From positions 17,719,265 to 17,783,264 of the forward strand of contig NC_081374.1 of assembly GCF_030684315.1 (NCBI RefSeq): DNA of 64,000 nt. The letters run 5' to 3'. Below are positions 1,961 through 58,672 of the stretch, one piece after another. This DNA comes from Stegostoma tigrinum. Lineage: Eukaryota. A program made the position numbers and the translations under genes. Under the pieces are notes generated by a model. That model was not told the origin of the DNA and did not search any database. It saw nothing but the letters and a program-made list of their open reading frames with translations. How positions within the stretch are numbered: the first letter of the stretch is position 1; each line of letters begins with the position of its first letter.

Positions 1961-2688
1961 ACTTCCCCATGAATTTCCTTGCATCCTTCACAGACATCAA
2001 CTATACATCTTGTGTGGGCACAAACACTACTTCTGGGAACAAAAACTCTCCCAATTTTGGGAGAGAATATATATTGAAGGGGAAAAGTTTTAGTGAAATG
2101 TGTTTTGTGTTGATTAGTAAGCTTGATTGGTTTGTAGCCCAGTGGAGCAACTGTGTACGTAAACAATAATGTAAAGACTTGCAGCAAAGCATGAAAGGAA
2201 CATTTCCAGGGTCAATTAAATATGGGTTAGAAGACCACACACACTGTGCTCTGGCTATAACCTCCTCCCATCCATGGTGCTTGTGTTTATGCAAAGTCAT
2301 TGCATTGTGTGTATTCCTCCTCTCAGTCATATTTCTTTTTGTGAAGATACTTGAACTTTTTTATTTCCTCTGTGCCTCAGTAAATGGGAAATTGCAACAA
2401 GCAAATAACAATGCACCAGCTGTGGGTTTTTAAAAAAGCAGGTTGGGTATTGGTGGGACAGCCACATCCTTCAAGTCACCTTCCATTAATACGCCAGATT
2501 TCAAATGGACTAACTCCAGGAAAACGTGCACTTCTGCTCTGAGGTCTCTATGATGTCAGGCTGTGGTCCTGTTCAAATGGAATGAAAACCAGAAAAACAG
2601 GCTTTGCTGGAACGTAGCAGCCAGTGTAATTTTTAAGAAGACTTAGGCTGTGGATGAGAGTTTGCTCGCTGAGCTGGAAGGTTCGTTT

Positions 2689-2728
2689 TCAGATGTTTCG
2701 TCACCATTCTAGGTAACATCATCAGTGA
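2689..2728 (-). ncRNA. Second hammerhead motif copy (inverted arm), GAAACGTC changed to GAAACATC
   Basis: Reverse complement of 2814-2853 with a single CpG-type transition in stem III. Confidence 0.6.
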
Positions 2729-2813
2729 GCCTCCGACGAAGCGCTGGTGTTATGTCCCGCTTTCTATTTTATGAATAGAAAGCGGGACAAAACACCAGCG
2801 CTTCGTCGGAGGC

Positions 2814-2853
2814 TCACTGATGATGTTACCTAGAATGGTGACGAAACGTCTGA
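2814..2853 (+). ncRNA. Minimal hammerhead ribozyme motif (PLE type)
   Basis: tca-CTGATGA-t-GTTACC(tagaat)GGTGAC-GAAA-CGTC-tga: intact core, 6-bp stem II, 3-bp stem I, loop-less palindromic stem III. Confidence 0.8.
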
Positions 2854-3367
2854 AAACGAACCTTCCAGCTCAGCGAGCAAACTCTCATCCAGAACTTCAA
2901 CCTGAGCTACAAATCTTCTCAAACTCACTTAGGCTGTGCAAGGAATAAAGAATAACATAGAGCTAATAACCACACAGACATGTGATTGTATGGACACTTT
3001 TACTTGGCGGGGTGACACAGGCAAATCTTTCTCGTTTTCCAACTACCAAGTCATTGAATCTTTCCATCAGGCAGAAAAAAAAATCTCCTTTTAAAATGGA
3101 GAAGCACACTTTTTCTGCACCCTGATTGCCTAATAATAGAGGTGGGAAGGGGAAAGAAGTGGCCCATGCTGTGGCTGTCCAGATTTAAGACTGAGTTGAG
3201 GAGAAACTTCCCAGTTTGGGAACAATCCCAAAGCATTTTCACTTTAAAGTCAGATTAACACATGACTGAGATAATGGGAACTGCAGATGCTGGAGAATTC
3301 CAAGATAATAAAATGTGAGGCTGGATGAACACAGCAGGCCAAGCAGCATCTCAGGAGCACAAAAGCT

Positions 3368-3395
3368 GACGTTTCGGGCCTAGACCCTTCATCAG
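3368..3395 (-). ncRNA. Minimal hammerhead ribozyme core in the pLTR (intact)
   Basis: Minus strand reads CTGATGA-a-GGGT(ctag)GCCC-GAAA-CGTC. Only ~2 bp of stem I are evident. Confidence 0.65.
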
Positions 3396-3514
3396 AGAGG
3401 GGGATGGGGAGAGGGAACTGGAATAAATAGGGAGAGAGGGGGAGGCGGACCGAAGATGGAGAGTAAAGAAGGTAGGTGGAGAGAGTATAGGTGGGGAGGT
3501 AGGGAGGGGATAGG

Positions 3515-4498
3515 TCAGTCCAGGGAAGACGGACAGGTCAAGGAGGTGGGATGAGCTAAGTAGGTAGATGGGGGTGCGGCTTGGGGTGGGAGGAAGGGAT
3601 GGGTGAGAGGCAGAGACAGGTTGGACTGGTTTTGGGATGCAGTGGGTGGGGGTGGGGGGTGGGGGGAAGAGCTGGGCTGGTTGTGTGGTGCAGTTGGGGG
3701 AGGGGACGAACTGGGCTGGTTTACGGATGCAGTAGGGGAAGGGGAGATTTTGAAACTGGTGAAGTCCACATTGATACCATATGGCTGCAGGGTTCCCAGG
3801 CGGAATATGAGTTGCTGTTCCTGCAACCTTCGGGTGGCATCATTGTGGCAGTGCAGGAGGCCCATGACGGACATGTCATCTAGAGAATGGGAGGGGGAGT
3901 GGAAATGGTTTGCGACTGGGAGGTGCAGTTGTTTGTTGCGAACTGAGCGGAGGTGTTCTGCAAAGCGGTCCCCAAGCCTCCGCTTGGTTTCCCCAATGTA
4001 GAGGAAGCCGCACCGGGTACAGTGGATGCAGTATACCACATTGGCAGAAGTGCAGGTGAACCTCTGCTTAATGTGGAATGTCATCTTGGGGCCTGGGATA
4101 GGGGTGAGGGAGGAGGTGTGGGGGCAAGTGTAGCATTTCCTGCGGTTGCAGGGGAAGGTGCCGGGTGTGGTGGGGTTGGAGGGCAGTGTGGAGCGAACAA
4201 GGGAGTCACGGAGAGAGTGGTCTCTCCGGAAAGCAGACAGGGGAGGGGATGGAAACATGTCTTGGGTGGTGGGGTCGGATTGTAAATGGCAGAAGTGTCG
4301 GAGGATGATGCGTTGTATCCGGAGGTTGGTAGGGTGGTGTGTGAGAACGAGGGGGATCCTCTTAGGGCGGTTGTGGCGGGGGCGGGGTGTGAGGGATATG
4401 TTGCGGGAGCAGAGGTCCTTTGCAGGTCTGGGAGAGGGAGGCTGTGAGCTGGGGCAGGCTGGATTGCAGTGCCTGGAGGTGCCGGCGCATGGCTGCAA
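3515..4498 (-). CDS. PLE ORF C-terminal part: RT-thumb/linker, Cys/Zn motif and GIY-YIG endonuclease (5' truncated, no RT core)
   Basis: NVVYCIHCTRCGFLYIGETKRRLGDRFAEH...VANHF...RRLQEQQLIFRLGTLQPYGIN matches the PLE GIY-YIG pattern (VY..YIG, R, H, E, GxN). The N-terminal ~30 aa come from the junction spacer. Confidence 0.8.
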   Translation of the reverse strand: MQPCAGTSRHCNPACPSSQPPSPRPAKDLCSRNISLTPRPRHNRPKRIPLVLTHHPTNLRIQRIILRHFCHLQSDPTTQDMFPSPPLSAFRRDHSLRDSLVRSTLPSNPTTPGTFPCNRRKCYTCPHTSSLTPIPGPKMTFHIKQRFTCTSANVVYCIHCTRCGFLYIGETKRRLGDRFAEHLRSVRNKQLHLPVANHFHSPSHSLDDMSVMGLLHCHNDATRRLQEQQLIFRLGTLQPYGINVDFTSFKISPSPTASVNQPSSSPPPTAPHNQPSSSPHPPPPPTASQNQSNLSLPLTHPFLPPQAAPPSTYLAHPTSLTCPSSLD

Positions 4499-4641
4499 GT
4501 GTCTGTTTCAGGACTTGCAGGGAGAAACGATTCTGAAGGGGCAAAGGTCCTTTGCAGGTCTGGGAGAGGGAGGCTCTGTGCTGGGGCAGGCCACCCACCC
4601 CGCCCCCGCCACAACCGCCCTAAGAGGATCCCCCTCGTTCT

Positions 4642-5405
4642 CACACCACCCTACCAACCTCCGGATACAACGCATCATCCTCCGACGCTTCCGCCATTTA
4701 CAATCCGACCCCACCACCCAAGACATTTTTCCATCCCCTCCCCTGTCTGCTTTCCGGAGAGACCACTCTCTCCGTGACTCCCTTGTTCGCTCCACACTGC
4801 CCTCCAACCCCACCACACCCGGCACCTTCCCCTGCAACCGCAGGAAATGCTACACTTGCCCCCACACCACCTCCCTCACCCCTATCCCAGGCCCCAAGAT
4901 GACATTCCACATTAAGCAGAGGTTCACCTGCACATCTGCCAATGTGGTATACTGCATCCACTGTACCCGGTGCGGCTTCCTCTACATTGGGGAAACCGAG
5001 CGGAGGCTTGGGGACGGCTTTGCAGAACACCTCCGCTCAGTTCGCAACAAACAACTGCACCTCCCAGTCGCAAACCATTTCCACTCCCCCTCCCATTCTC
5101 TAGATGACATGTCCATCATGGGCCTCCTGCACTGCCACAATGATGCCACCCGAAGGTTGCAGGAACAGCAACTCATGTTCCGCCTGGGAACCCTGCAGCC
5201 ATATGGTATCAATGTGGACTTCACCAGTTTCAAAATCTCCCCTTCCCCTACTGCATCCCTAAACCAGCCCAGTTCGTCCCCTCCCCCCACTGCACCACAC
5301 AACCAGCCCAGCTCTTCCTCTCTCTCTCTCTCTCTCTCTCCCCCCCCCCCCCCCCCTCCACCCACTGCATCCCAAAACCAGTCCAACCTGTCTCTGCCTC
5401 CCTAA
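4642..5405 (+). CDS. Inverted second copy of the PLE GIY-YIG endonuclease region (part of listed ORF 4146..5405)
   Basis: Same protein as 3515..4498 with ~9 substitutions. A 2-bp (ac) deletion near 4643 shifts the frame upstream, so the first ~165 aa of the 419-aa ORF are antisense or out-of-frame readthrough. Confidence 0.75.
5318..5356 (+). repeat. (CT)n plus poly-C tract
   Basis: Directly visible; absent from the left arm (3645-3668). Confidence 0.9.
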
Positions 5406-5629
5406 CCGGTTCTTCCTCTCACCCATCCCTTCCTCCCACCCCAAGCCGCACCCCCATCTACCTACTTAGCTCATCCCACCTCCTTGACCTGTCCGTCTTC
5501 CCTGGACTGACCTATCCCCTCCCTACCTCCCCACCTATACTCTCTCCACCTATCTTCTTTTCTCTCCATCTTCGGTCCGCCTCCCCCTCTCTCCCTATTT
5601 ATTCCAGTTCCCTCTCCCCATCCCCCTCT

Positions 5630-5657
5630 CTGATGAAGGGTCTAGGCCCAAAACGTC
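5630..5657 (+). ncRNA. Hammerhead core in the inverted pLTR, mutated GAAA>AAAA (5650)
   Basis: CTGATGA-a-GGGTCTAGGCCC-AAAA-CGTC; the conserved G12 is lost. Confidence 0.5.
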
Positions 5658-7089
5658 AGCTTTTGTGCTCCTGAGATGCTGCTTGGCCTGCTGTGTTCAT
5701 CCAGCCTCACATTTTATTATCTTAACACATGACTGGGTGTGTTAGCAGACAGTTGTTTAATCAAATGTCCAGATAACAACATTATGAAGATATGGCTTGA
5801 AATTGAGATATTAATATTGGGAGCAGACATATTGTTGCTTTCATTTGTCCTCAAATAGATTCATACTTCCTTTGAAATCAAGATAAATTGAAATTGTTGT
5901 TAATATGCCCTCATTCTAAACCTAGAGATTAGTTAGAACTTAATTTTCTTTTTTAAAAAAAACCATTTTACAGGATGTGGGTGTCACAGGCTAGACCAGC
6001 AGTTGTTGGCCATCCCATTCCAAAAAACCCTTCACAAGTGAAATTGGCTTCCTGATAACTGTTGACACATTTCCTGATGGTGAAGGTTATCAAAATATCA
6101 TTTTTTTAAAAAAAAAATTGATTATCAGAAGGTCCAGTCCATAGCTGGTCAGTTTATCAGTATCTCCTGAGTTGTGCTGGTGTTGAATTAGCTTCCATTT
6201 CTTTATTAGGCATAGTTTAATTTTAGGCTACTTTCAGTCCTGTCTCTGTGGGTATTAAGAGTTTGAAATCTACCGGTTATCTAGGCAGGATGATTAACCA
6301 TCATGTTCATGAAGCCACATGTGCACCAAACTGATTTTTAAGAGATTCTATGTACAGAATTAGATACTTTTTATAACCTTCTACAGTAAGTCTGAAAATC
6401 AGCACTGTTCTGCGATTTGTAACTACAAGTATTTTCCCACATTATTTTCCACATAAGTACTAATGGTTTAGAAAGCTCCTTTTAATTCTGAAGGATAATC
6501 CAATGATTAAACTGTCAAATTCAACCTCTAATGAAAAATTACTGTCACCTTAATTACCTTTTCTGACAAGAGACTGATGCTGGGTTATGAGCAGATCAGC
6601 AGAAAATTACACAAATGACCTCTGAGAAACTTGCAGTGTTAAGACCGGGCCCTGGGTGAAGTTCCCCCATTAACTATGGTTCCAGATGTCTACTCCATTC
6701 CTGTCTGAGGAAGGATGCACTTGCTCCTGTTTATTCACCCACCAGCTTTGCACACCAAGATGAATTTGCAAAGGATCACTTCTTCTTTTAGGGATACCTT
6801 CCTCCCAGGCCATATGAATTTGTGGTTTAAAATGAGCTAATTTAACTAGGTTTTATTACTGACTGTGAGAAGTAACAATATCACATGCACACATCAGAAC
6901 GAGTGCAAAAAATGTTAAAGGACATAAGGTTCATTGATTGTGAAGCTTATAGAATGGAAGGTTGATAAGTCATGAAGTCATTTTTCGGATTCTTGGCTTT
7001 GTTTGAAATTTTTTTGTCCAGCTTTTTTGGCTGGATTTCTGGCTCGTGGATTACTAGCATTCAGAACAAGATGATCCTTTGACCTGAGA

Positions 7090-7197
7090 AGGTAGGAACT
7101 GCAGATGCTGGAGAATCTGAGATAACCAGGTGTAGAGCTGGATGAACACAGCAGGCCAAGCAGCATCAGAGGAGCAGGAAGGCTGACGTTTCGGACT
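7090..7197 (-). mobile_element. Solo pLTR 3' end of a Neptune-type PLE
   Basis: ggaactgcagatgctggagaatctgagataac...gctggatgaacacagcaggccaagcagcatc...gctgacgtttcgg matches 3275-3377. Confidence 0.8.
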
Positions 7198-7350
7198 TTA
7201 TGGGTGTGACCTTCATTACCTATTAATGCTTGAAAACAGGCGACGTTTACCTCAGCTCATCACTGCACGCAGATCAGGGTTGAGCTGGTTTTTAACTTTG
7301 TTCTTGTGTGACTGTCCCTCTCAAACATACAAAACATGTTCCTCGTCTAG

Positions 7351-7526
7351 AGATAGTAAGGACTGCCCATGCTGGAGTCAGAGATAGCAGAGTGTGGAGC
7401 TGGACAAACACAGCAGGCCAGGCAACATCAGAAGAACAGGATGAAGAAGGGTCCCAATGTGAAACGTCAGCTTTCCTGTTCCTCTGCTGCCTGGCCTGTT
7501 GTGTTCATCCAGCTCCACACTGTTTA
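7351..7526. mobile_element. Older mini fold-back PLE pLTR insertion
   Basis: gtgtggagctggacaaacacagcaggccaggc is inverted against gcctggcctgttgtgttcatccagctccacac. Left-only tail agatagtaaggactgc... Degenerate TSD atgttcctcgtctag (7336-7350) / atgtccttcatctag (7527-7541), 12/15 identical. Confidence 0.7.
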
Positions 7527-7849
7527 ATGTCCTTCATCTAGGCTGTTACCATTTTCCCTCACCGTGTTCACAGCCTAAAGTAACTTCCAAGGTTCCCGTT
7601 TAGTTCATAGTACATTTTAAGTTCCTTTGAACTTCTTGGTACCTTTGTTGGGTATGTCTCACCTGACAGCCACTGAAATATTTTGGCTGTATCGGTTCTC
7701 TTTTTTTTTAAAAAGTAAAGCTGAAATTAAATTGTGATTTTTGTCCAAAGGTGATCTAGGGTTATGACTAGATTTGCCATGCTGAAATATAAATTCCTTT
7801 TATAATAGCTTTATTCCTTATTTAGTTTGCGGACAGCAATCAGTTAAGT

Positions 7850-14945: not shown

Positions 14946-15127
14946 TCTCAAGAGAGATGAAATATTGTCCATGAACACAGGATGTCTTCACCTAAAGTTG
15001 GCATAGTATTCCTGAAAATTGTGACTTTCTCACACTATTGTTGGTGAGGGCTTGCTGTGTGAAAACAGAGCTTTTTTGTTATAATTGTCACTGCACGACT
15101 TGAAAAAACTGGTTTAAATATGACCAT

Positions 15128-15251
15128 TTCTGAAGAAGGGTCCCAACCCGAAACGTTAACTTTCCTGCTCCTCTGATGCTGCCCGACCTGCTGTGCTCCT
15201 CCAGCTCCACGCTGTTATCTCTGACTCTGGCATCAGCAGCTCTAACTATCT
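15128..15251 (+). mobile_element. Solo PLE pLTR end with an intact hammerhead core at 15130-15157
   Basis: CTGAAGA-a-GGGT(ccca)ACCC-GAAA-CGTT, followed by pLTR sequence and tail (ctctgactctggcatcagcagctctaactatct). Confidence 0.75.
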
Positions 15252-15794
15252 TTAAATACAGTGCATTGTGTATGCAGCATTGTGTATTATTGACAGAAAT
15301 AACTTGCAAAATAAAAGGCTAACTTCAGTGAAGAAAACAGGCTTCTTGCTTACAAAGAGGTATTTTCAAAAAACATGATAGTACATTACAGGTACAGTGT
15401 AAGCTCTTCAACTACTGTACCTGTGCAGGTGACGTACTGTCGTGTGCAGTGCAGCAGAAAGTTTTTAATTATGCTCACAAACATTCCTCTATTTTTAGTA
15501 TATGTACAAACAGCAGAGCATTTCTTTTAAATTTAAGACCAGATATACTTGAGTGCTTCACCAAAAAGCTGTTTAGAGAAAAAAAAACAATGATCTTTGC
15601 TGGCAGGACACAGATGCAGTGGCACCAACACTGTCAGCACATTTAGGGGCCTTGCTAATGATGCATCTCAAAGGTCCAAGTGGCTTAAAGGTGTGAAATG
15701 CAAAAGGACATTAAAATTGGGAATGGGAGGAGGTGACATAAAAAGGCAATATTTTAAAGAGTACAAAGACTTGAAAAAACGAGATGTAAAACTA

Positions 15795-16386
15795 GAGACA
15801 ACACGGTGTGGAGCTGGATGAATAAATAGAGGGAGGAAGGGTGGAGTTGGGGAAAGGTAGGTGGGGTGATGTTAGGTGGATGCAGGCAGGGAGTGGTGGG
15901 GATTAGTCAGTGGGTGTAGCAGATACTTGAGGAAGAAGATGGACAGGTCGTGTTGATGCAAGGAGTCAGGGATGAGAGGGAGGTTGGATGTGGGATGAGG
16001 CCAGAGTGCGGAGATTTTCACCAGTTTTCCATCTTCTTCCCCACCCGTCCAGCCAACCAATTCCACTACCAACCCCTACCCTTATCCACCTATCACCACC
16101 CCACCTACCTTTCCCCATCCCCACCCATGCTCCCTACTGCCTCCTTGACCCGACACAACCTCCTCGTCTTCTCTCCCACGTATCTGCCCTACCCATCCCA
16201 CTGACTAGTCCCTACCTGCATCTGTCTGCTTTTCCCCAGCCCACCCCTCCTCCCTCTATTTATTTCTGAGCTCTCTTCCCTCTTCCCCCACCGAGGGAAG
16301 AAGGGTCCTGACCTGAAATGTCAACTTTCGTCTTCCTCTGATTCTGCCTGGCCTACCTGCGTTTCTCCAGCTCCTCACTGTGTTGC
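15795..16386. mobile_element. Degenerate fold-back Neptune-type pLTR insertion
   Basis: G-rich left half (aataaatagagggaggaaggg...tgcaggcagggag) mirrors the C-rich right half (ccctacctgcatc...ctcctccctctatttattt); ends caacacggtgtggagctgga / tccagctcctcactgtgttg. Confidence 0.65.
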
Positions 16387-18469
16387 CCGCGTTCTTAATT
16401 AGATGTAAAGCACTTTGGAATGTCCCAGGAAAGTGCCTATTTAAATGCAAATCCTGTTTAATTTGGAGGTTGGTACATTCAACCTCATATCGTACTGAAT
16501 ATGAGAGCTGTTGCAGTATGGGACGAAGCATCTTGTGCCCTGTGTCTAGACTGACCGTCTGAAAGAGCAGCTCAATGAGTGCCACTCCTTGTTTTTTTTC
16601 TGTCAGCCTTCTTTTTACGCTTTTTTAGATAACAACCCAAATTCCCTTTTTAAAGCTACAATGGATCTGGCCTCCTCCACACTTCATCAGGGCAGTTTAT
16701 TTCGGATCTTTAAAGAAAAGTTTATCCTTGTGCCACCATTGTTTATTTTTATTTTAAATTGCCGTTTCCCTTAACTCAACATCCTCTGGTTCATTCTCCT
16801 TCTAACAATGGGATCACTTTATCCCTACCTAATCTGTCCCAACCGTCCATGATTTTCAAATTTTGTCTTACCCTCATTGTAAAGAAATACATATATCAGG
16901 TAGCCCTGGCTGTTCTGATGCCACGGACTTGGCTCCGGCTGCACTCCCCAGAAGATTCATCACTTTGATCAGTATTTGGAACTGAATACTGCCTGGAGAC
17001 TCTCTCTTGTATGACCTGCCTATTTATTTTTTGACTGCGTGGTGGTTACCCACACCTTCTCCCTTTGTGTACTCTTGAACTTTGGAATGACCATCTCAAA
17101 AACCATGCTGACCTTGCACTGCAGTGATCCCAGCTGTTTGCTTGTGGTCTGAAATTTGGAGCTTGAGCAGTAGTAGCTGTTCATATTTCCTGCATGTTCA
17201 TTTAACACAGACGCAGGAAATCTGAGTTCCCACAGGGAACAGGATGTGTCCACCAGGGGCTGGAGCTGCGATGCCATTGCTCTCTGATAGATAACAAAAC
17301 TTACATTTCAAAGCAATATGGAATTTGCTTTTAAATCAAAGGGGCAGCCCTTGCTTTGCAAGAGTTAGTGCCTGTCTATGATGTGTGTGAATGTTGACTG
17401 CATTATTATTGATCTATCTGCAGCCTAAAAGTTAATGTCTATAGAGCCTGTATTTGCAGACCCTGAGAAACCATGACCTAGTGCTATTCACTGATAGTTT
17501 TTGAAAGCAAATGGATTGCTAGACATGCCTTTTCATTGGAATAATTTTCATACATCAAAATCGAACTGTGAAGTTGTACAGCATTTTTAATCAACATTAG
17601 ACCATGCTGCAAAATCAGTACTGAATACTACTGTAAGAGGACATCCGGTCTTGGTTAACAGAAGATTAACAGGCTTTATGAAACATAACTGTGTGAGGAA
17701 TGATGAGAGGGCAGCTTCTTAAACCTTACTGATTTGAGCTCTAGTTCCGTGTGTTCAGGTGTCTCATTAGTACAGCTCCATAAGCAGGTGCCCAGATACT
17801 ATTCCTAGAGAAAAGGTACAGTCAATCCTTTACTCCACTGATACTGATTAACACAAATGTCAATTAAATGGAGTTAGGATATGTTACTTGCACTGCTTAT
17901 ACATCACTTAATTGAATCAAACATTAAGGGTGCTTTTACTTCACTTCTGTTATTAAACAAAATTGAATTTCCTTTCTGTGCTGATTAGACAGTGATATAT
18001 TCAAGGGAGGATGTCGAGTCATCCTAAAAAACAGGTAGAAGTTGCAATTTGGTCACAAAATTCTACTTGCGAATAGGAATTGGTGGTAATGGCAATGGTT
18101 TGATCCGATCAAAGATGAACTCTGTTCTCAAAGATAGGATGGACATTCTAATAGAACTGTGCAGATATTTTAAGATTTAACGAGGTGTCATGCCCTTTTA
18201 TTTCAATCTTACAATGTCCCTGGGCCATTTAAGTCATAACTTTTCAAACTGGAATTTACTGTATTTATTTGTGTATATTAATTTTTTAAAAATGTTCTAA
18301 TCTTCTGTTAGTAACTGACATTTATTTTATAGAAGCTTCCACAACAAAAGTCGGAATAGTTTGAAAATCAGGACCTTTTGGCAATTTGAGGATTTGATCT
18401 TTAGATTCTAGTACTCTTTTTAAAGGCATTAATCATCAGCTTTGTGAATAATAAATAACCATGAGAGAG

Positions 18470-21419: not shown

Positions 21420-22150
21420 AAATCAAAGGAAGAGGCCATGCAGCCCATTGCTTCTGCTCTGGCTGAATAAACTAGCCCTTCCCTCCATCTGATATCCCGT
21501 TCCAATCTTCAGGTGTTGACTCATGTTCGTTCTTGCTCAACCACCAAACCAGGCAGCAAACTCTAGATGACCCACTGTCCTCAGGGTGAAAAATAGTAGG
21601 AACTGCCGATTGCTGGAGTTTGAGATAACCAGATTTAGAGCTTGATGAACACAGCAGGCCAGGTAGCATCGGAGGAGCAGACAGGCTGACGTTTTGGATC
21701 TGGACCCTTCCTCACGGGGAGGAAAAAAATGAAGGGTCCAGACCCAGTACGTCAGCTTTCCTGCTGCTCTGCTGTCTGGCCTGCTATCTTTATCTTCTGT
21801 TCCTTTTCGTCCTTCTACCCTAACTCCGTGACACCTGAAAATTGACTACTTCTTTAGGGGGAACATGGGCAACATAGAATCACATATGTTTTCCCTGTCT
21901 GCTCTACCCAAATCACCAAATATTTTGTACACCTCAATCAAGTCACCACTCCTCCACTGCACCCCCCCCCCCGCCACCCTCCGTCACTTCTGTTCTAAGG
22001 AAAACAGCTCCAATCTGTCCAATCTTTCCTCATAGCTGCAAATTTCTATTCCTGCCAATTTTCTTGTAAATCTCCTTTGTACTGTCTCTAGCGCAATTAC
22101 ACCCTTCCTGGAACGTGGTAACGAGAACTGTTGAAAGGAACTCCAGCTCG
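21420..22150 (-). mobile_element. CR1-like LINE 3' fragment interrupted by a PLE mini-hairpin
   Basis: Minus-strand remnant of the CR1 LEYCVQFWSP..RKD..ALERVQRRFT region at 22030-22150; CR1 3' UTR at 21430. Confidence 0.55.
21592..21795. mobile_element. Mini fold-back PLE pLTR insertion
   Basis: gctgacgttttggatctggacccttc is inverted against gaagggtccagacccagtacgtcagc; left-only tail atagtaggaactgccgattgctggag. Confidence 0.7.
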
Positions 22151-36619: not shown

Positions 36620-37289
36620 GAAAGAATGGAAATAGGCCATTCAGTCCATCAAGTTTTCTCTGCTGTTCAATTGTGCCTGATCTATTTCCCAACCCCATTT
36701 TTCTGCTTTCACCCCATAGTCTTTGATCCTTTTACCAACCAAGAATCCACCTATCTCTGTCTCATATATATTCTCAATGACTTGGCCTCCACAGCGTTCT
36801 ATGACGAGGAATTCCAAAGATTTCCCCACTCTCTGGCTGAAGAAGGTCATCCTCTTCTCAGTGCGGAAGGGCTGTGCCTTCAATCTGAAGGTGAGCCCTC
36901 TGGTCCTAGTCCCCCCTACAAGTTGCAATGCTATCTCCACATCCACTTTATCCAGGTCTCTCAGTTTTCTTGTAAGTTTTCATCAGATCTCCCTCATCTC
37001 TCTCTCAATTCTCATCAAATACAGACTGAGTTCTCAATTACCCCAATGATGACCTTAATTCCCAGGATCGTTTTTGTGAACTACTTCTGGATCCCCTTCA
37101 TGGCCAGCACATCCTTGATTTAGATATGGGACCCAAAACTTTTCTCAACATTCCAAATGTGGTCTGACCAGAACCATCCTCAGCATGACATCCTTACTCT
37201 TGTGGTCTAACCACCTTGAAACGAATATTAACATTGCATTTGTCTCCTTAACTGCCAACTGAGTCTTCATCTTAATCAGAAGAGAACCC
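36620..37289 (-). mobile_element. CR1-like LINE 3' fragment (host of the 37290 PLE)
   Basis: ORF 36641..36946 VGGTRTRGLTFRLKAQPFRTEKRMTFFSQRV is the CR1 ORF2 C-terminus. Confidence 0.75.
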
Positions 37290-37722
37290 TGGATGTGAGT
37301 TTGCACGCTGAGCTGGAAGGTTAGTTTTCAGACAGTTCGTCACCATTCTAGAAAACATCATCAGTGAGCCTCTGATGAAGCACTGGTGTTATGTCCCGCT
37401 TTCTATTTATCGGTTTAGGTTTCCTTGGGTTGGTGATGTCATTTCCTGTTCTTTTTCTCAGGGGATGGTAGATTGATTTGGAGCCAATGTGTTTGTTGAT
37501 GGAGTTCTGGTTGGAATGCCATGCCTCTAGGAATTCTCGTGCGTGTCTCTGTTTGGCTTGTCCTAGGATGGATGTGTTGTCCCAATCAAAGTGGTGTCCT
37601 TCCTCATCTGTATGTAAGGATACGAGTGATAGTGGGTCATGTCGTTTTGTGGCTATTTGATGTTCGTGTATCCTGGTGGCTAGCTTTCTGCCAGTTTGCC
37701 CAATGTAGTGTTTGTCACAGTT
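37290..37722 (-). mobile_element. 5'-truncated Poseidon/Penelope-type PLE: GIY-YIG C-terminal half plus pLTR with a decayed hammerhead
   Basis: Minus translation CDKHYIGQTGRKLATRIHEHQIATKRHDPLSLVSLHTDEEGHHFDWDNTSILGQAKQRHAREFLEAWHSNQNSINKH. 37290-37408 matches 2651-2768. Confidence 0.85.
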
Positions 37723-43135: not shown

Positions 43136-43717
43136 CCCTTGGGGCTGACCATGCAGCATCAGTGTGCGCAGGGCACTTACTGGCTTGCAGCATCTGAAGT
43201 GCTGCGGAGCCTGGGGTTTAAACCTGCTGCGACTGACATTAATGCTGCAAAGTCCTGGCACAGTGAGTGTGCCTGCCTCTCCTATCTCACAAATCCCATG
43301 AAGTGGGCATTGAAGAGGCCTGGCACATAGTCACTGAGCACAGTGGCTTGAGAAAGTTGAGGTGTCGATGCTTGACTGACTCCCATAATGTCACAAAATG
43401 CCAACTTTCAGGGGCCACATTTTCACATTTGTTTTTTTTTGGCAGTGATATGTTGGTGTGGGTTAGCTTATTTGGGGTGATTTATGCACATTTTAAGTTT
43501 GGACAACAGCTAAATACTGTGGATACTGGAAATGTGAATAAACATGAACAAACAATGTTGTACATACACGACATGTCTGACTGCCAATGTGAAGAACAAA
43601 ACATGAATAATATTTTGGATCTGTGACCTTTCACCAGTACCAAGTTTGAGCAGGTTCAAATGAGATTGCAAGAATATTGAAGTGTAATTTTGACATTTGT
43701 GAAATAGGCATGATATT

Positions 43718-45788
43718 GATGTAGAGGTGCTGGTGTCGGACTGGGGTGGACAAAGTCAGAGGTTATGCAACACCAGGTTATAGTCCAACAGGTTTATTTG
43801 AAATCACAAGCTTTCATAGCCCCTTTATCAGTTGAAGTGAGAGAAGAGCACACAGGCATAGAATTGATAGACCAAGAGATAAAATGATCATGCACATTGT
43901 GTGAGCAGAGTGTTGAATAATAAGTCTCTGCAGGCGATCAAAACTGTCAGATGGTGGGAGTAAAGAGCCAACAGTTGAATAACAAGCAAAGGAATCACCT
44001 GTAATCCAATAAAATGAGGCAGAGAGATAATTATAAAATGTTAAAAATAAGGATGTGTTGAAGACAAACCAAATGACTGGAATGACATGATAAGTATCAA
44101 AGTCACATGCTGAAGGTGTAATATAAGTAATTTGAAACTGTACACACTAAGGTAGAGAGGTCATAACAATTTATCAAGATGGTAGTGTCAACAGGACAAT
44201 AAGGAAGACTTTTCAGATACAGAACAGTATGCTGGGGTCACGTAGCACAATGTGAATACAAAATTACAGTTGAGGCCATCCTCATGGGTACAGAACTTGG
44301 TTATCAGTCTCTGCTTGGCGATTGTGTGTTGTTGTGTATGTGAAAGGCCACCTTGGAGGACAGTTACCTTGATATCAGAGGCTCAACGTCCTTGACTGCT
44401 GAAATGTTCCCTGACTGAGCAGGAACATTTCTGTCTGACAATTGTTGCACTGTGTCCATTCATCTGTTGTTGTAGCGTCTGCATGGTCTTGTTAGTATAC
44501 CATGCTTCAGGGCATTCTTGCCTGCAATATATGAGAGACAACATTGACCGAGTCACATGAGTATCTGCCGTGCACATGGTGGATGGTGTTCTCACGTGTG
44601 ATGGCAGTGTCTGTCGATGTACTGATTATGTCTTGCAGATTTTGCCATGTCAGCATTGTGTGGTATTCTGAGCAATGGTGTCTTGGTAGTTTGCTGCAAA
44701 AGATGGTCTGTTTAAGGTTGGAGTCTGTTTTGAAGGTGAGAAGTGGAGGGTGTAGGCATGATCTTGATGAGATGCTTATTGTCATCCATGACATGTTGAA
44801 AGCAGTGAAGAACATGACATGGTCTTGCTTCTCCAGGGCAGTAGTAGACAATGAAGGGTACTCTCAGTTGTAACCTGTATCTGTAATCTGAAGAGGACAT
44901 TGTGGGTTTTCACTGTGGCACATTGGAACTGGTTATTGATGAGTTGAGCATCGTATCCTGTTATGAGGGTGTCCACCATATTCCTCCTCATCTGAGCAGA
45001 CCCTGTGTATGCACAGGACTTGTCGGCAGGGGATGGCTTCTTTAATATGTTTAGCATGGAAGTTAGAAGTGCAGCATTGCGAGGTTATCCGTGGACTTGC
45101 AGTAGAGTGAGGCACTGAAGAGTCTGTTCTTGTTGGTCGAGAGTGATTTCTGAAGGACAGTCCATGGTAAATCTGATGCTGAGATGAAGCTTGTTGATAT
45201 CACTATGTAGTGGTTTCGGTGATTCCTTGTCATGAGTCCAATGGAAGAAAACGTTGTTGATGTATCAGGTGTGTAGTGTTGGACAGAGGTCCTGTGCAGC
45301 AAAAGTCTTTGCTCGAACTTCTGCATAAAATGTTGGTGTATTAAGGTGCAAATTTGGTGCCCCTGACTGTTCCATGTGTTTGGATGAAGAACTGGTTGTT
45401 GAAGGTGAAGACATTGTGGTCGAGGATGCAGTGGATGCGACTCTGATACCTATTGCATTATTTCCAGTAATTTCTTTTCTCTCTAACACCAGCTTATTTT
45501 GAATTTTTTGTAATTATCTCGCTGTCTCATTTAATCCGATTGCAGGTCATCCCTTTGCTTGTTATTCAGCTGTTGACTTTTTATTTAAATACCTAATATT
45601 TTTGATCACTTGCAGAGGCTTACTATTTGACATAGCACTCACACCATTTGTATGATCTTTTGATATCTCTGCCGGTAAATGCTGTGTCTGTGTGCTTCTG
45701 TCTGACCTCACCTGATGAAGGGGCTATGCTCTGAAAGCTTGTGAGTTCCAATAAACATGTAGGGCTATAACTTGGTGTTGTGTGACTC
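43718..45788 (-). mobile_element. Decayed PLE with RT and GIY-YIG remnants and an inverted pLTR
   Basis: 43761-44060 is inverted against 45484-45787. Minus remnants: TLHT*YINNVFFHWT (YIDD motif, 45253-45264), SLYCKSTDNLAMLHF, HHVHGRYSCDSVNVV, CRQECPEAWY...QQMNGH...VREHFS. Confidence 0.8.
45707..45745 (+). ncRNA. Minimal hammerhead ribozyme motif
   Basis: CTCAC-CTGATGA-a-GGGGC(tat)GCTCT-GAAA-GCTT-GTGAG: 5-bp stem I, stem II, palindromic AAGCTT stem III. Confidence 0.7.
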
Positions 45789-46551
45789 TCAAAATTGATG
45801 CCAGTTTCATATTTAATATCTGGGTTGTGCAAAAGGAGGAAACTTAAGACCAGTATCTTCATGACTATCACACTTTCATTACAAACCAATTGCTCTTGAT
45901 TGTTACAGTGGCTCCACATAAAAGCAATAAGATACAAGGCAGAAAAACAGTGGTGCCTTCATCTGCTTCTCCATTTGATGATCATTTGAGTAGTTAAACT
46001 AAAATGAGAGTGAATTTATTGGTACATTTGAGTGCATGCTTGGATCAGACCTGTGTTCATTCAGTCTCTGCGCATTAGTGAACGTAATGATTTCCACAAG
46101 ATGGTCCCGCAATATCCAGGTTTGAGTGGACCCCTGACCTGCAGAGCTATTTAAAGGACCTTTTTCCTTTTATCTGATGGACTATTTATGGTGAGTGTGG
46201 AATTTCTAGAATGGTGACAGTGACAACTGTACCAAATGACATCATCTGAATGAAAGTCTTACAATGATCCACATGCTGCTATAGTATTGGCCAGTAACAT
46301 GAGCTGCTTGGAGGCAAGGGGCCAGGATGCAGCTTATTCTATGCTAAATGTTTCAAGCTATACAAGATATGTTTGTGGTAAAAGCTCCTGTGTCCTCTGA
46401 TTTGTCATGTTAACAGGAACACTGCTAACACATGAAATCAATAGTTAGCAGTATCGTCTTCGAATATGGGTGGAAGGCATGACCAATGCATTGGAGCCAC
46501 TTAATCAGAGGAGTGGAAAATGCTTGTAATGAGTTGACACCCCCATTAAAT

Positions 46552-55010: not shown

Positions 55011-56305
55011 GAACATAGAACAGTACAGCACAGAACAGGCCCTTCAGCCCACAATGTTGTGCTGACCATTGATCCTCATGTATGCACCCTCAAATTTCTG
55101 TGACCATATACATGTCCAGCAGTCTCTTAAATGACCCCAATGACCTTGCTTCCACAACTGCTGCTGGCAACGCATTCCATGCTCTCAACTCTCTGCGTAA
55201 AGAACCTGCCTCTGACATGCCCTCTATACTTTCCACCAACCAGCTTAAAACTATGACTCCTCGTGCTAGCCATTTCTGCCCTGGGAAATAGTCTCTGGCT
55301 TTCAACTCTATCTATGCCTCTCATTATCTTGTATACCTCAATTAGGTCCCCTCTCCTCCTCCTTTTCTCCAATGAAAAGAGACCGAGCTCAGTCAACCTC
55401 TCTTCATAAGATAAGCCCTCCAGTCCAGGCAGCATCCTGGTAAACCTCCTCTGAACCCTCTCCAAAGCATCCACATCTTTCCTATAATAGGGCGCCCAGA
55501 ACTGGACGCAGTATTCCAAGTGCGGTCTAACCAAAGTTTTATAGAGCTGCAACAAGATCTCACTACTCTTAAACTCAATGCCCCTGTTAATGAGAGCCAA
55601 GACACCATATGCTTTCTTAACAACCCTGTCCACTTGGGTAGCCATTTTAAGGGATCTATGTATCTGCACACCAAGATCCCTCTGTTCCTCCACACTGCCA
55701 AGAATCCTATCCTTAATCCTGTACTCAGCTTTCAAATTCGACCTTCCAAAATGCATCACCTCGCATTTATCCAGGTTGAACTCCATCTGCCACCTCTCAG
55801 CCCATCTCTGCATCCTGTCAATGTCCCGCTGCAGCCTACAACAGCCCTCTACACTGTCAACGACACCTCCGACTTTTGTCGTCTGCAAACTTGCTGACCC
55901 ATCCTTCAATCCCCTCATCCAAGTCATTAATAAAAATTACAAACAGTAGAGGCCCAAGGACAGACCCCTGTGGAACCCCACTCACCACTGACTTCCAGGC
56001 AGAATATTTTCCTTCTACTACCACTCGCTGTCTTCTGTTGGCCAGCCAATTCTGTATCCAAGCAGCTAAGTTCCCCTGTATCCTATTCCTCCTGACCTTC
56101 TGAATGAGCCTACCATGGGGAACCTTATCAAATGCCTTACTGAAGTCCATATACACCACATCCACAACTCGACCCTCATCAACATTTCTAGTCACATCCT
56201 CAAAAAACTCTAAGGTTTGTAAGGCATGACCTACCCCTCACAAAGCCATGTTGACTGTATTTGATCAAGCCATGCTCTTCCAGATGGTCATAAATCTTAT
56301 CCCTC
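55011..56305 (-). mobile_element. Young 5'-truncated CR1/HER1 LINE: RT domain to 3' end, frameshifted
   Basis: [47 protein letters not shown] (55857..56195) continues after a frameshift as [37 protein letters not shown] (55127..55927); gaacatagaaca tail. Confidence 0.93.
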
Positions 56306-58309: not shown

Positions 58310-58672
58310 AAACAAAAAAACAAAAAATGTTGGAGAAACTCATCAGATCTATCAGCACCTGTGGAGACAAATCAGAGTTAATGTTTCGGGTCCAGTGACC
58401 CTTCAGAACGTAATCAGATGAACAAGTTGATAATTAACAGGAACAAAAGCAGAAGTTGCTGGAAAAGTTGAGCAGGCCTGGCAGCATCTGTAAAGGAAAA
58501 TAAATCAGTTAATATTTTGGGTCTAGTGACCCTTCCTCAGAACCAAACCAGAAACGTTAACGCTGATATTTTTTGTCCCCAACAGATGCTGCTAGATCGG
58601 CTGAGCTTTTCCAGTAACTTCTGTTTTTTTTTCCCTGATTTACAGCAATTGCAGTTGTTTTAGTTTTTATTT
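58310..58672. mobile_element. Solo pLTR (58310-58408) next to a mini fold-back pLTR element (58440-58672)
   Basis: cagaagttgctggaaaagttgagcaggcctggcagcatctg is inverted against cagatgctgctagatcggctgagcttttccagtaacttctg; right-only tail ctgatttacagcaattgcagttg... Confidence 0.7.

Follow-up and report, generated by a model that had tools for sequence, protein, structure and literature searches.

Insertions of endonuclease-positive (EN+) Penelope-like elements (PLEs) are typically composite: a copy is joined by an adjacent inverted, 5′-truncated copy and carries a tail of 30–40 bp (PMC8557442). Such units have target site duplications (TSDs) of 8–10 bp, and head-to-head is their commonest arrangement (PMC3846280). 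How PLEs build inverted insertions is stated to be an open question (PMC8557442; PMC11167929). (Here and below, PMC8557442, PMC3846280, PMC4209133, PMC7999016, PMC10587355, PMC10191854, bioRxiv 10.1101/2024.08.27.596794, and 10.64898/2026.07.22.740005 are cited from excerpts.) We analyzed one such unit, at positions 3255–5735 of a 64,000-nt stretch of the Stegostoma tigrinum genome (NC_081374.1, 17,719,265–17,783,264, forward strand; hereafter the window). It shares with the canonical EN+ PLE unit (PMC8557442; PMC3846280) a head-to-head inverted repeat, a one-sided 33-nt tail, a TSD, a pseudo-long terminal repeat (pLTR) containing a hammerhead, and a C-terminal endonuclease of the GIY-YIG type with a CCHH motif. 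Because the tail is found on the left only and the TSD is 14 bp long, the locus fits the description of an inverted, 5′-truncated copy with a one-sided 30–40 bp tail and a TSD of variable length. It differs from the canonical unit in that each arm has a length of 1.1 kb and extends into the open reading frame (ORF), there is no full-length copy or tandem pLTR, and the centre is made of two pieces from the 5′ part of the ORF. The original prediction had implied that the layout is rare; the excerpts describe it as typical, and the window itself holds six further candidate palindromes. The class and layout are already known; the centre is mechanistically informative.

Other described systems offer partial parallels. 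PLEs of the Neptune clade likewise have a linker ahead of the C-terminal endonuclease, and the nearest homologs of our locus are shark and ray ORFs with a reverse transcriptase (RT) and GIY-YIG; in contrast, the locus itself has no RT, and its target is a mixed 14-mer. The Anolis Poseidon element PAc, studied in vitro (Frangieh et al. 2024, PMC11167929), is similar in having two termini one tail-length apart and in that both target strands are usable as primers, but PAc belongs to the Poseidon clade and has no Cys linker, and its main text reports neither template jumps nor finished insertions. Template jumps have been proposed for other PLE inserts (PMC3846280); a repeated template landing site in PLEs was not described in the literature we searched, which leaves out most subscription papers. 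In L1 twin priming and template switching (PMC10191854; bioRxiv 10.1101/2024.08.27.596794), a second target strand also primes and the RT also switches template within one insertion. At our locus, in contrast, the same 3′ 1.1 kb is present in each arm, and poly(A) is lacking. The second primer in L1 twin priming starts inside the RNA, which leaves the 3′ end out of the inverted part.

On balance, we favor reading the locus as one old, non-coding Neptune-type PLE insertion produced by dual priming, with two template jumps on the left copy (Table 1). The endonuclease would have made a cut in each target strand, at a spacing of 14 nt, and reverse transcription would have been primed from either 3′ end, by the top-strand end at an outer start site (yielding the tail) and by the bottom-strand end at an inner one. 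Both cDNAs would have run for ∼1.13 kb, perhaps to a common RNA 5′ end or a stall. The left RT would then have moved upstream by at least 1.7 kb to ORF codon 130 and copied 132 nt, before landing a second time at the same nucleotide and copying at least 51 nt more; end-joining with a 4-nt filler would have closed the centre, and both arms would afterwards have decayed neutrally. The two extra front-end pieces likely record the RT jumping template twice to the same spot.

Table 1. Features of the insertion and of related palindromes in the window
Feature	Position	Strand	Basis or remark
TSD, left copy, 14 bp	3255–3268	+	Exact match to 5722–5735
PLE tail, 33 nt, left arm only	3269–3301	−	Not in right arm; family termini at 3268–3270 and 3300–3303
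Left arm: element's 3′ 1.1 kb (end of thumb region, linker, endonuclease, 3′ untranslated region, pLTR)	3302–4408	−	PLE profile positions 678–893, 268 bits; 93% identity to a Stegostoma RT+GIY-YIG protein
Putative minimal hammerhead, left, core intact (CUGAUGA, stem II, GAAA, GUC)	3368–3395	−	Motif scan and fold
GIY-YIG endonuclease with CCHH motif, left; R, H, E, N retained	3770–4039	−	
CX4CX2C linker motif (Neptune/Nematis type), left	4124–4150	−	
Centre piece X2, 132 nt, codons ∼86–130 of family ORF (N-terminal domain), left-arm sense	4409–4540	−	
Centre piece X1, 51 nt, second copy of the 3′ end of piece X2	4541–4591	−	Direct repeat, period 132
Filler, 4 nt, or slippage copy of right arm's first four bases	4592–4595	+	Sequence; no usable microhomology
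Right arm, without tail	4596–5723	+	PLE profile positions 700–893, 237 bits
GIY-YIG domain, right; conserved Arg to Gly (5016), Lys to Glu (4998)	4944–5213	+	
Putative minimal hammerhead, right, GAAA of the core mutated to AAAA (G to A at 5650)	5630–5657	+	Motif scan and fold
TSD, right copy, 14 bp	5722–5735	+	Exact match to 3255–3268
Palindrome of another PLE family, 316 bp from the insertion	2641–2938		118-nt arms 98% alike, 5-nt loop, 12-bp TSD, ∼35-nt tail on right, hammerhead core in both arms
Old PLE palindrome, arms ∼1.7 kb (RT-thumb and endonuclease remnants) and 0.35 kb	43715–45800		Possible 7-bp TSD
Older short head-to-head palindromes	7336–7556, 15793–16400, 21591–21794, 58314–58650		

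The outer boundaries are sharp. The TSD 14-mer occurs exactly twice in the window, and a match of at least 14 nt would be expected by chance only ∼6e-5 times (100 × 100 search). It is a mixed sequence and no microsatellite, so that the Neptune-type bias for microsatellite targets is not seen here; this bias is a tendency hypothesized for the linker and not a strict criterion (PMC8557442). Both element 3′ ends face outward, placing the arms head-to-head. Alignment of 3302–4389 (−) with 4596–5723 (+) gave 17 substitutions in 1086 columns (98.4% alike), three of which lie inside a poly-C tract. It also contains three indels, measuring 2, 24, and 18 nt. The right arm carries a 2-nt frameshift at 4642 and a (CT)n expansion at ∼5317–5340, and its last two T are common with the TSD. 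The 14-bp TSD and the near-identical outward-facing arms of the original prediction were therefore confirmed. Its claim that the arms end near the same point held for the continuous 5′ breakpoints, which are 16–19 nt apart (4408 versus the equivalent of 4389–4392), with cDNA lengths to the first break of 1140 nt on the left and 1126–1130 nt on the right; it had overlooked the extension of the left arm to 4408 and the 33-nt tail. Family sequence continues past 4408 in contigs of run X9, and the end position of the tail is matched by older relatives at 7.1, 7.4, 15.1, and 21.6 kb. Contigs from two samples run through the left flank and the TSD into 22 nt of the tail with 0 differences, an overlap below our 31-letter bridging rule. 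Among the contigs listed, none spans the whole insertion, and the central junctions are not among the rows displayed. A Class II element with terminal inverted repeats (a miniature inverted-repeat transposable element or Foldback) was rejected, as the arms are offset by the tail and consist of PLE coding sequence and pLTR.

Assignment to the Neptune-type EN+ PLEs, a known class and layout, is supported by motifs and homologs. The left frame matched shark and ray RT + GIY-YIG proteins (50 matches among 415 candidates, 54%–93% identity), the best being 93% (Stegostoma) and 89% (Rhincodon), and both arms scored on a PLE profile built from nine long homologs (Table 1). Each arm has the CX4CX2C linker, a CxxC that separates the GIY equivalent from that of YIG, and the two His, giving a C-terminal GIY-YIG with CCHH in both; Pfam alone reported GIY-YIG in the left frame only, at 19.7 bits and thus below its cut-off of 22.6. 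A CX2-5CxxC linker ahead of a C-terminal endonuclease is known from Neptune and Nematis elements (PMC8557442), and a survey found Neptune and Poseidon in vertebrates (10.64898/2026.07.22.740005). The Neptune label draws on the linker and the homologs; Nematis has the same linker, and the locus has no RT for tree placement. The Penelope/Poseidon clade, defined by a missing linker Zn-finger (PMC8557442), was rejected because the linker is present in the arms, and Naiad/Chlamys, with an N-terminal endonuclease and no canonical hammerhead, because here the endonuclease is C-terminal and the hammerhead follows it. The Neptune-type identity of the original prediction was supported. Its two open GIY-YIG frames are stop-free over the endonuclease domain but not intact: neither holds an RT or a natural start, and the right one has the frameshift and a Gly in place of an Arg that is invariant in nine of nine long homologs. 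The locus is 5′-truncated; the homologs P0001/P0002 (89%–93% identical; profile positions 447–893) do have an RT upstream of the endonuclease. Three metagenome loci were matched at 27%–35% identity.

A 423-codon stop-free frame (4134–5405, +) connects the antisense of the left arm, by way of the centre, with the right endonuclease domain, and a single stop at 4508–4510 interrupts its mirror frame. As a chimeric gene this ORF was rejected: it crosses the antisense left arm and the centre, is in frame only via the frameshift, and was taken for a chance product of GC-rich sequence.

The original prediction had the two cDNAs simply joined head-to-head, which is incomplete, since the left side goes on through two more element-derived pieces. 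In left-arm sense the order is piece X1 (4591–4541), piece X2 (4540–4409), and the arm, with at least 564 profile positions skipped, and the joints overlap by at most 1 nt. With the 1-nt overlap at 4408 assigned to the arm, pieces X1 and X2 have a common end nucleotide; they differ at three of 51 nt (P ∼ 0.03 at the divergence of the arms). The right arm can also be aligned from 4591–4592 onward, with a small insertion. The minus-strand frame of the centre encodes a 44-residue peptide matching residues 87–130 of four shark proteins; six matches had E ≤ 0.001, one of them unrelated, and the best (P0052) was 93% identical with E = 2.6e-15. The five centre-matching proteins P0052–P0056 align to the N terminus of the PLE profile, on which the centre itself scored 5.1 bits at positions 77–114, compared with at most 1.6 in 200 shuffles. 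Direct BLAST/phmmer searches of the centre against the 50 left-frame homologs gave nothing significant, and an exact 31-mer from it had 0 metagenome matches. The ∼185-nt centre has no second copy in the window, is multi-copy in the genome, and is also found in contigs of organisms B and C. Foreign DNA or a satellite was ruled out as its source by the peptide matches, the profile score, and the analysis of the two pieces, and a splice origin of the 4408 junction was rejected because the run X9 family sequence offers no AG acceptor. Among the matching proteins, P0054 and P0055 (shark “mucin-2-like”/“uncharacterized”) consist of the PLE N-terminal domain followed by low complexity and look like mis-annotated retroelement ORFs.

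We aligned contigs of four runs to 2945–4660; run X9 gave no left-flank cover and run X10 only traces there, and neither yielded an empty site. Of the variant rows, 40 were displayed and 72 further ones were not, and 37 listed variable positions fall in the arm. The two arms carry the same family allele at 29 of these 37 sites, of which 15 are minority alleles in run X1 and two (3556 and 3558) are at ≤2%, and this sharing supports a single source for both arms. With one TSD pair around them, the arms agree with the single insertion event of the original prediction, and they are far closer to each other than random family copies are, opposite to what it had named as a sign of two independent insertions. 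At the eight discordant sites the right arm has the other listed letter, whose share in the family is ≥96% at six positions, 79% at a CpG, and 50% at 3464. Five more coding differences are derived on the right, judged by outgroup proteins. Eight of the nine coding differences (four left, five right) are non-synonymous, compared with a random expectation of 0.76, and the differences look like neutral decay. CpG decay accounts for two of 13 polarized differences despite ∼31 CpG per arm. ADAR marks in the template were considered and dropped: A-to-G on the sense strand at four of 13 is too few to call. The arm distance of 1.3% corresponds to ∼9.5 million generations (5–16 million) at 7e-10 per generation, a rate from another species (PMC10587355), and gene conversion would raise this age.

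What speaks for dual priming is in part geometry: a 14-bp staggered cut produces a pair of 3′ ends that face the gap, so priming by both gives element 3′ ends at both ends of the insert, as seen. Purified anole PLE protein, predicted to be a dimer, nicks both strands and extends them from two start sites, which delimit the tail (PMC11167929). Both termini are found family-wide (312 loose-ended records at 3303 in run X1, nine at 3268 in run X9). The sense of the centre agrees with the left cDNA, with joint overlaps of at most 1 nt; we looked for pairing at 4592–4596 that could allow snap-back priming and found none; and the unequal arms (∼1.7 vs. 0.35 kb) of the palindrome of another PLE family at 43.7–45.8 kb also favor dual priming. 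Several observations weigh against it. After 1.1 kb the continuous arms stop only 16–19 nt apart, and those of the 2651–2891 palindrome within ∼5 nt, so that independent cDNAs need a common stop, for which we can offer candidates only (a shared 5′ end of the RNA, stalling, or synthesis in concert); this is the weak point. A G-quadruplex was rejected as the cause, the run at 4351–4387 being one of five on the cDNA strand and so unspecific. The in vitro data concern a Poseidon-clade element from which a finished insertion was not recovered (PMC11167929). The three differences between pieces X1 and X2 may mean that two RNA molecules were used, or that the source copy already carried an older duplication. 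Full identity of the arms at insertion is at odds with site 3464, where they differ and the family is split 50:50; this may be chance or reflect two RNAs of one subfamily. The central and right junctions are without independent support, and 72 variant rows and 410 joints lie outside those displayed.

The matched breakpoints also fit a fold-back. Only one end would have primed on the RNA and, after the two jumps, the growing strand would have turned back on itself near 4390 and made the right arm with the left arm as its DNA template, or an antisense RNA would have self-primed, as already proposed by Arkhipova et al. 2013 (PMC3846280). Fold-back accounts for the breakpoints 16–19 nt apart here and ≤5 nt apart at 2651–2891, and for the single haplotype in both arms. 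Nonetheless, it needs a second mechanism to make synthesis end precisely at the tail boundary, a position that follows directly from the start sites seen in vitro, and the landing would pass over the 183 nt synthesized last; no complementarity for priming is present at 4592–4596, and the arms of the 43.7–45.8 kb palindrome are unequal. We therefore regard fold-back as possible but rather unlikely. Priming from both target ends, as in the original prediction, is still the best reading given the two-strand extension in vitro, even though the breakpoints at this locus do not separate it from fold-back.

Three further explanations seem improbable. A near-perfect palindrome might have broken later by hairpin or cruciform cleavage and been patched with cDNA of the same family, the right arm being trimmed by 12–19 nt. 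Palindromes with a short or no spacer do break more readily (PMC7999016), and such repair would account for the matched breakpoints and for a repeat-stabilizing centre; yet the patch is of the same family, in left-arm sense, and with a repeated landing point, all of which is simpler within the original event, and we consider later repair a minor prospect. Slightly less probable still, the deletion and the 132-nt duplication may have been present in a non-autonomous source copy, with no jump at this site. The three differences in 51 nt, above the rate of the arms, and the multi-copy centre sequence are in line with this, but records of runs X9 and X10 start at 4408 and continue in other sequence, like ordinary ORF copies, and the end point shared by deletion and duplication is a coincidence unless one process made both. 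Least credible, to the point of being nearly negligible, are two independent insertions at the same place or an artefact of assembly fold-back. With a summed contig depth of 1e6–3e7 vs. 12 on the flank, which is not a copy number, the family is extremely abundant, and no listed contig spans the locus; against this stand the one TSD pair around both arms, the one-sided tail, the third sequence in the centre, the private mutations of each arm alongside shared rare alleles, and a left junction identical in two samples.

A more tentative extension of dual priming with template jumps, which we would not bet on, is that the RT used one template entry point twice, either a defined RNA 3′ end or a third internal start at codon 130, in the manner of telomerase-like repeat addition, and that tail-to-tail joints are an alternative product of dual priming. 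Telomerase is the sister clade of Penelope-like RTs. Two of the 15 joints displayed (410 others were not) connect a tailed to a tail-less end on opposite strands: 3268–3300, with 27 and 23 contigs in runs X1 and X2, and 3270–3303, with 44 and 39, each at about single-locus depth. Joints of two tailed or two tail-less ends were absent among these 15. Dual priming resolved without melting of the target would fit the tail-to-tail joints, as would re-insertion beside an older copy, concatemers, or chance neighbors.

The original prediction also placed a hammerhead in each arm. The minimal core motif is present in both, consistent with the pLTR of EN+ PLEs, but the right core is mutated, and the right hammerhead is likely inactive. 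That core G of the hammerhead GAAA is the catalytic base. Our calls of putative ribozymes are based on core motif and fold: stem II of the left hammerhead forms in the predicted fold, at an energy no better than that of shuffles (z = 0.36), and there was no hammerhead among 19 Rfam matches at E ≤ 5, which are miRNA-type hairpins below gathering score, mostly on neighboring palindromes. Minimal hammerheads are known from metazoan PLEs (PMC4209133), with which ours share the core boxes, an extra base before stem II, the lack of stem III, and the palindromic ACGU at 15–16 positions; they differ in a stem II of 4–5 bp, a stem I of ∼2 bp, the mutated right core, and copies that are inverted, not tandem. 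Across the family, ∼540 loose-ended contig records per run start at 3396, 1 nt ahead of the hammerhead core, and joints 3398–3268 and 3367–3268 link the tail end to the pLTR start in tandem. Many family units could be read as solo or tandem pLTRs with a 5′ end fixed at the ribozyme.

Self-comparison of the window yielded 13 inverted pairs within 3 kb, resolving into seven candidate head-to-head palindromes including 3255–5735. Three window palindromes map to this pLTR at 71%–79%, and two are other PLE families by motif or profile; an exact TSD of at least 12 nt was found in two of eight intervals tested. The 58314–58650 palindrome seems to have two tandem arms and one inverted arm, and its assignment to PLEs is by resemblance only. 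A longer single copy of the 2641–2938 family lies at 37289–37722, and single pLTR copies at 7087–7218 and 15120–15251.

If either strand were transcribed through the insertion, the RNA is predicted to fold into a stem of ∼1075 arm-to-arm pairs (calculated on the + strand), with a longest perfect run of 141 bp. This agrees with the >1 kb double-stranded RNA proposed originally as a possible ADAR or endo-siRNA substrate; the cruciform proposed with it is unlikely across the ∼200-nt centre, because in eukaryotes frequent fork stalling is reported to be already absent at a 52-bp spacer (PMC7999016). A Pfam scan of 116 of the 448 ORFs (≥50 aa) and a crude exon scan, with one weak candidate, identified no host exon; the sole Pfam match in the 116 was RVT_1 (55860–56237, −; E = 2e-15), which is not on the PLE profile and is likely a long interspersed nuclear element. 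When the window is divided into 32 two-kb bins, T outnumbers A in 30 of them (skew 0.07), which hints weakly at a long + strand intron. For the host, the locus is most likely inert.

One locus cannot settle the insertion mechanism of PLEs. If template re-entry and tail-to-tail products are borne out, however, family-wide tail-to-tail joints would settle dual priming versus fold-back from genomes alone. Shark genomes evolve slowly and contain this family in great abundance; arm haplotypes, paired breakpoints, and the composition of centres can be counted genome-wide in them to separate the two.

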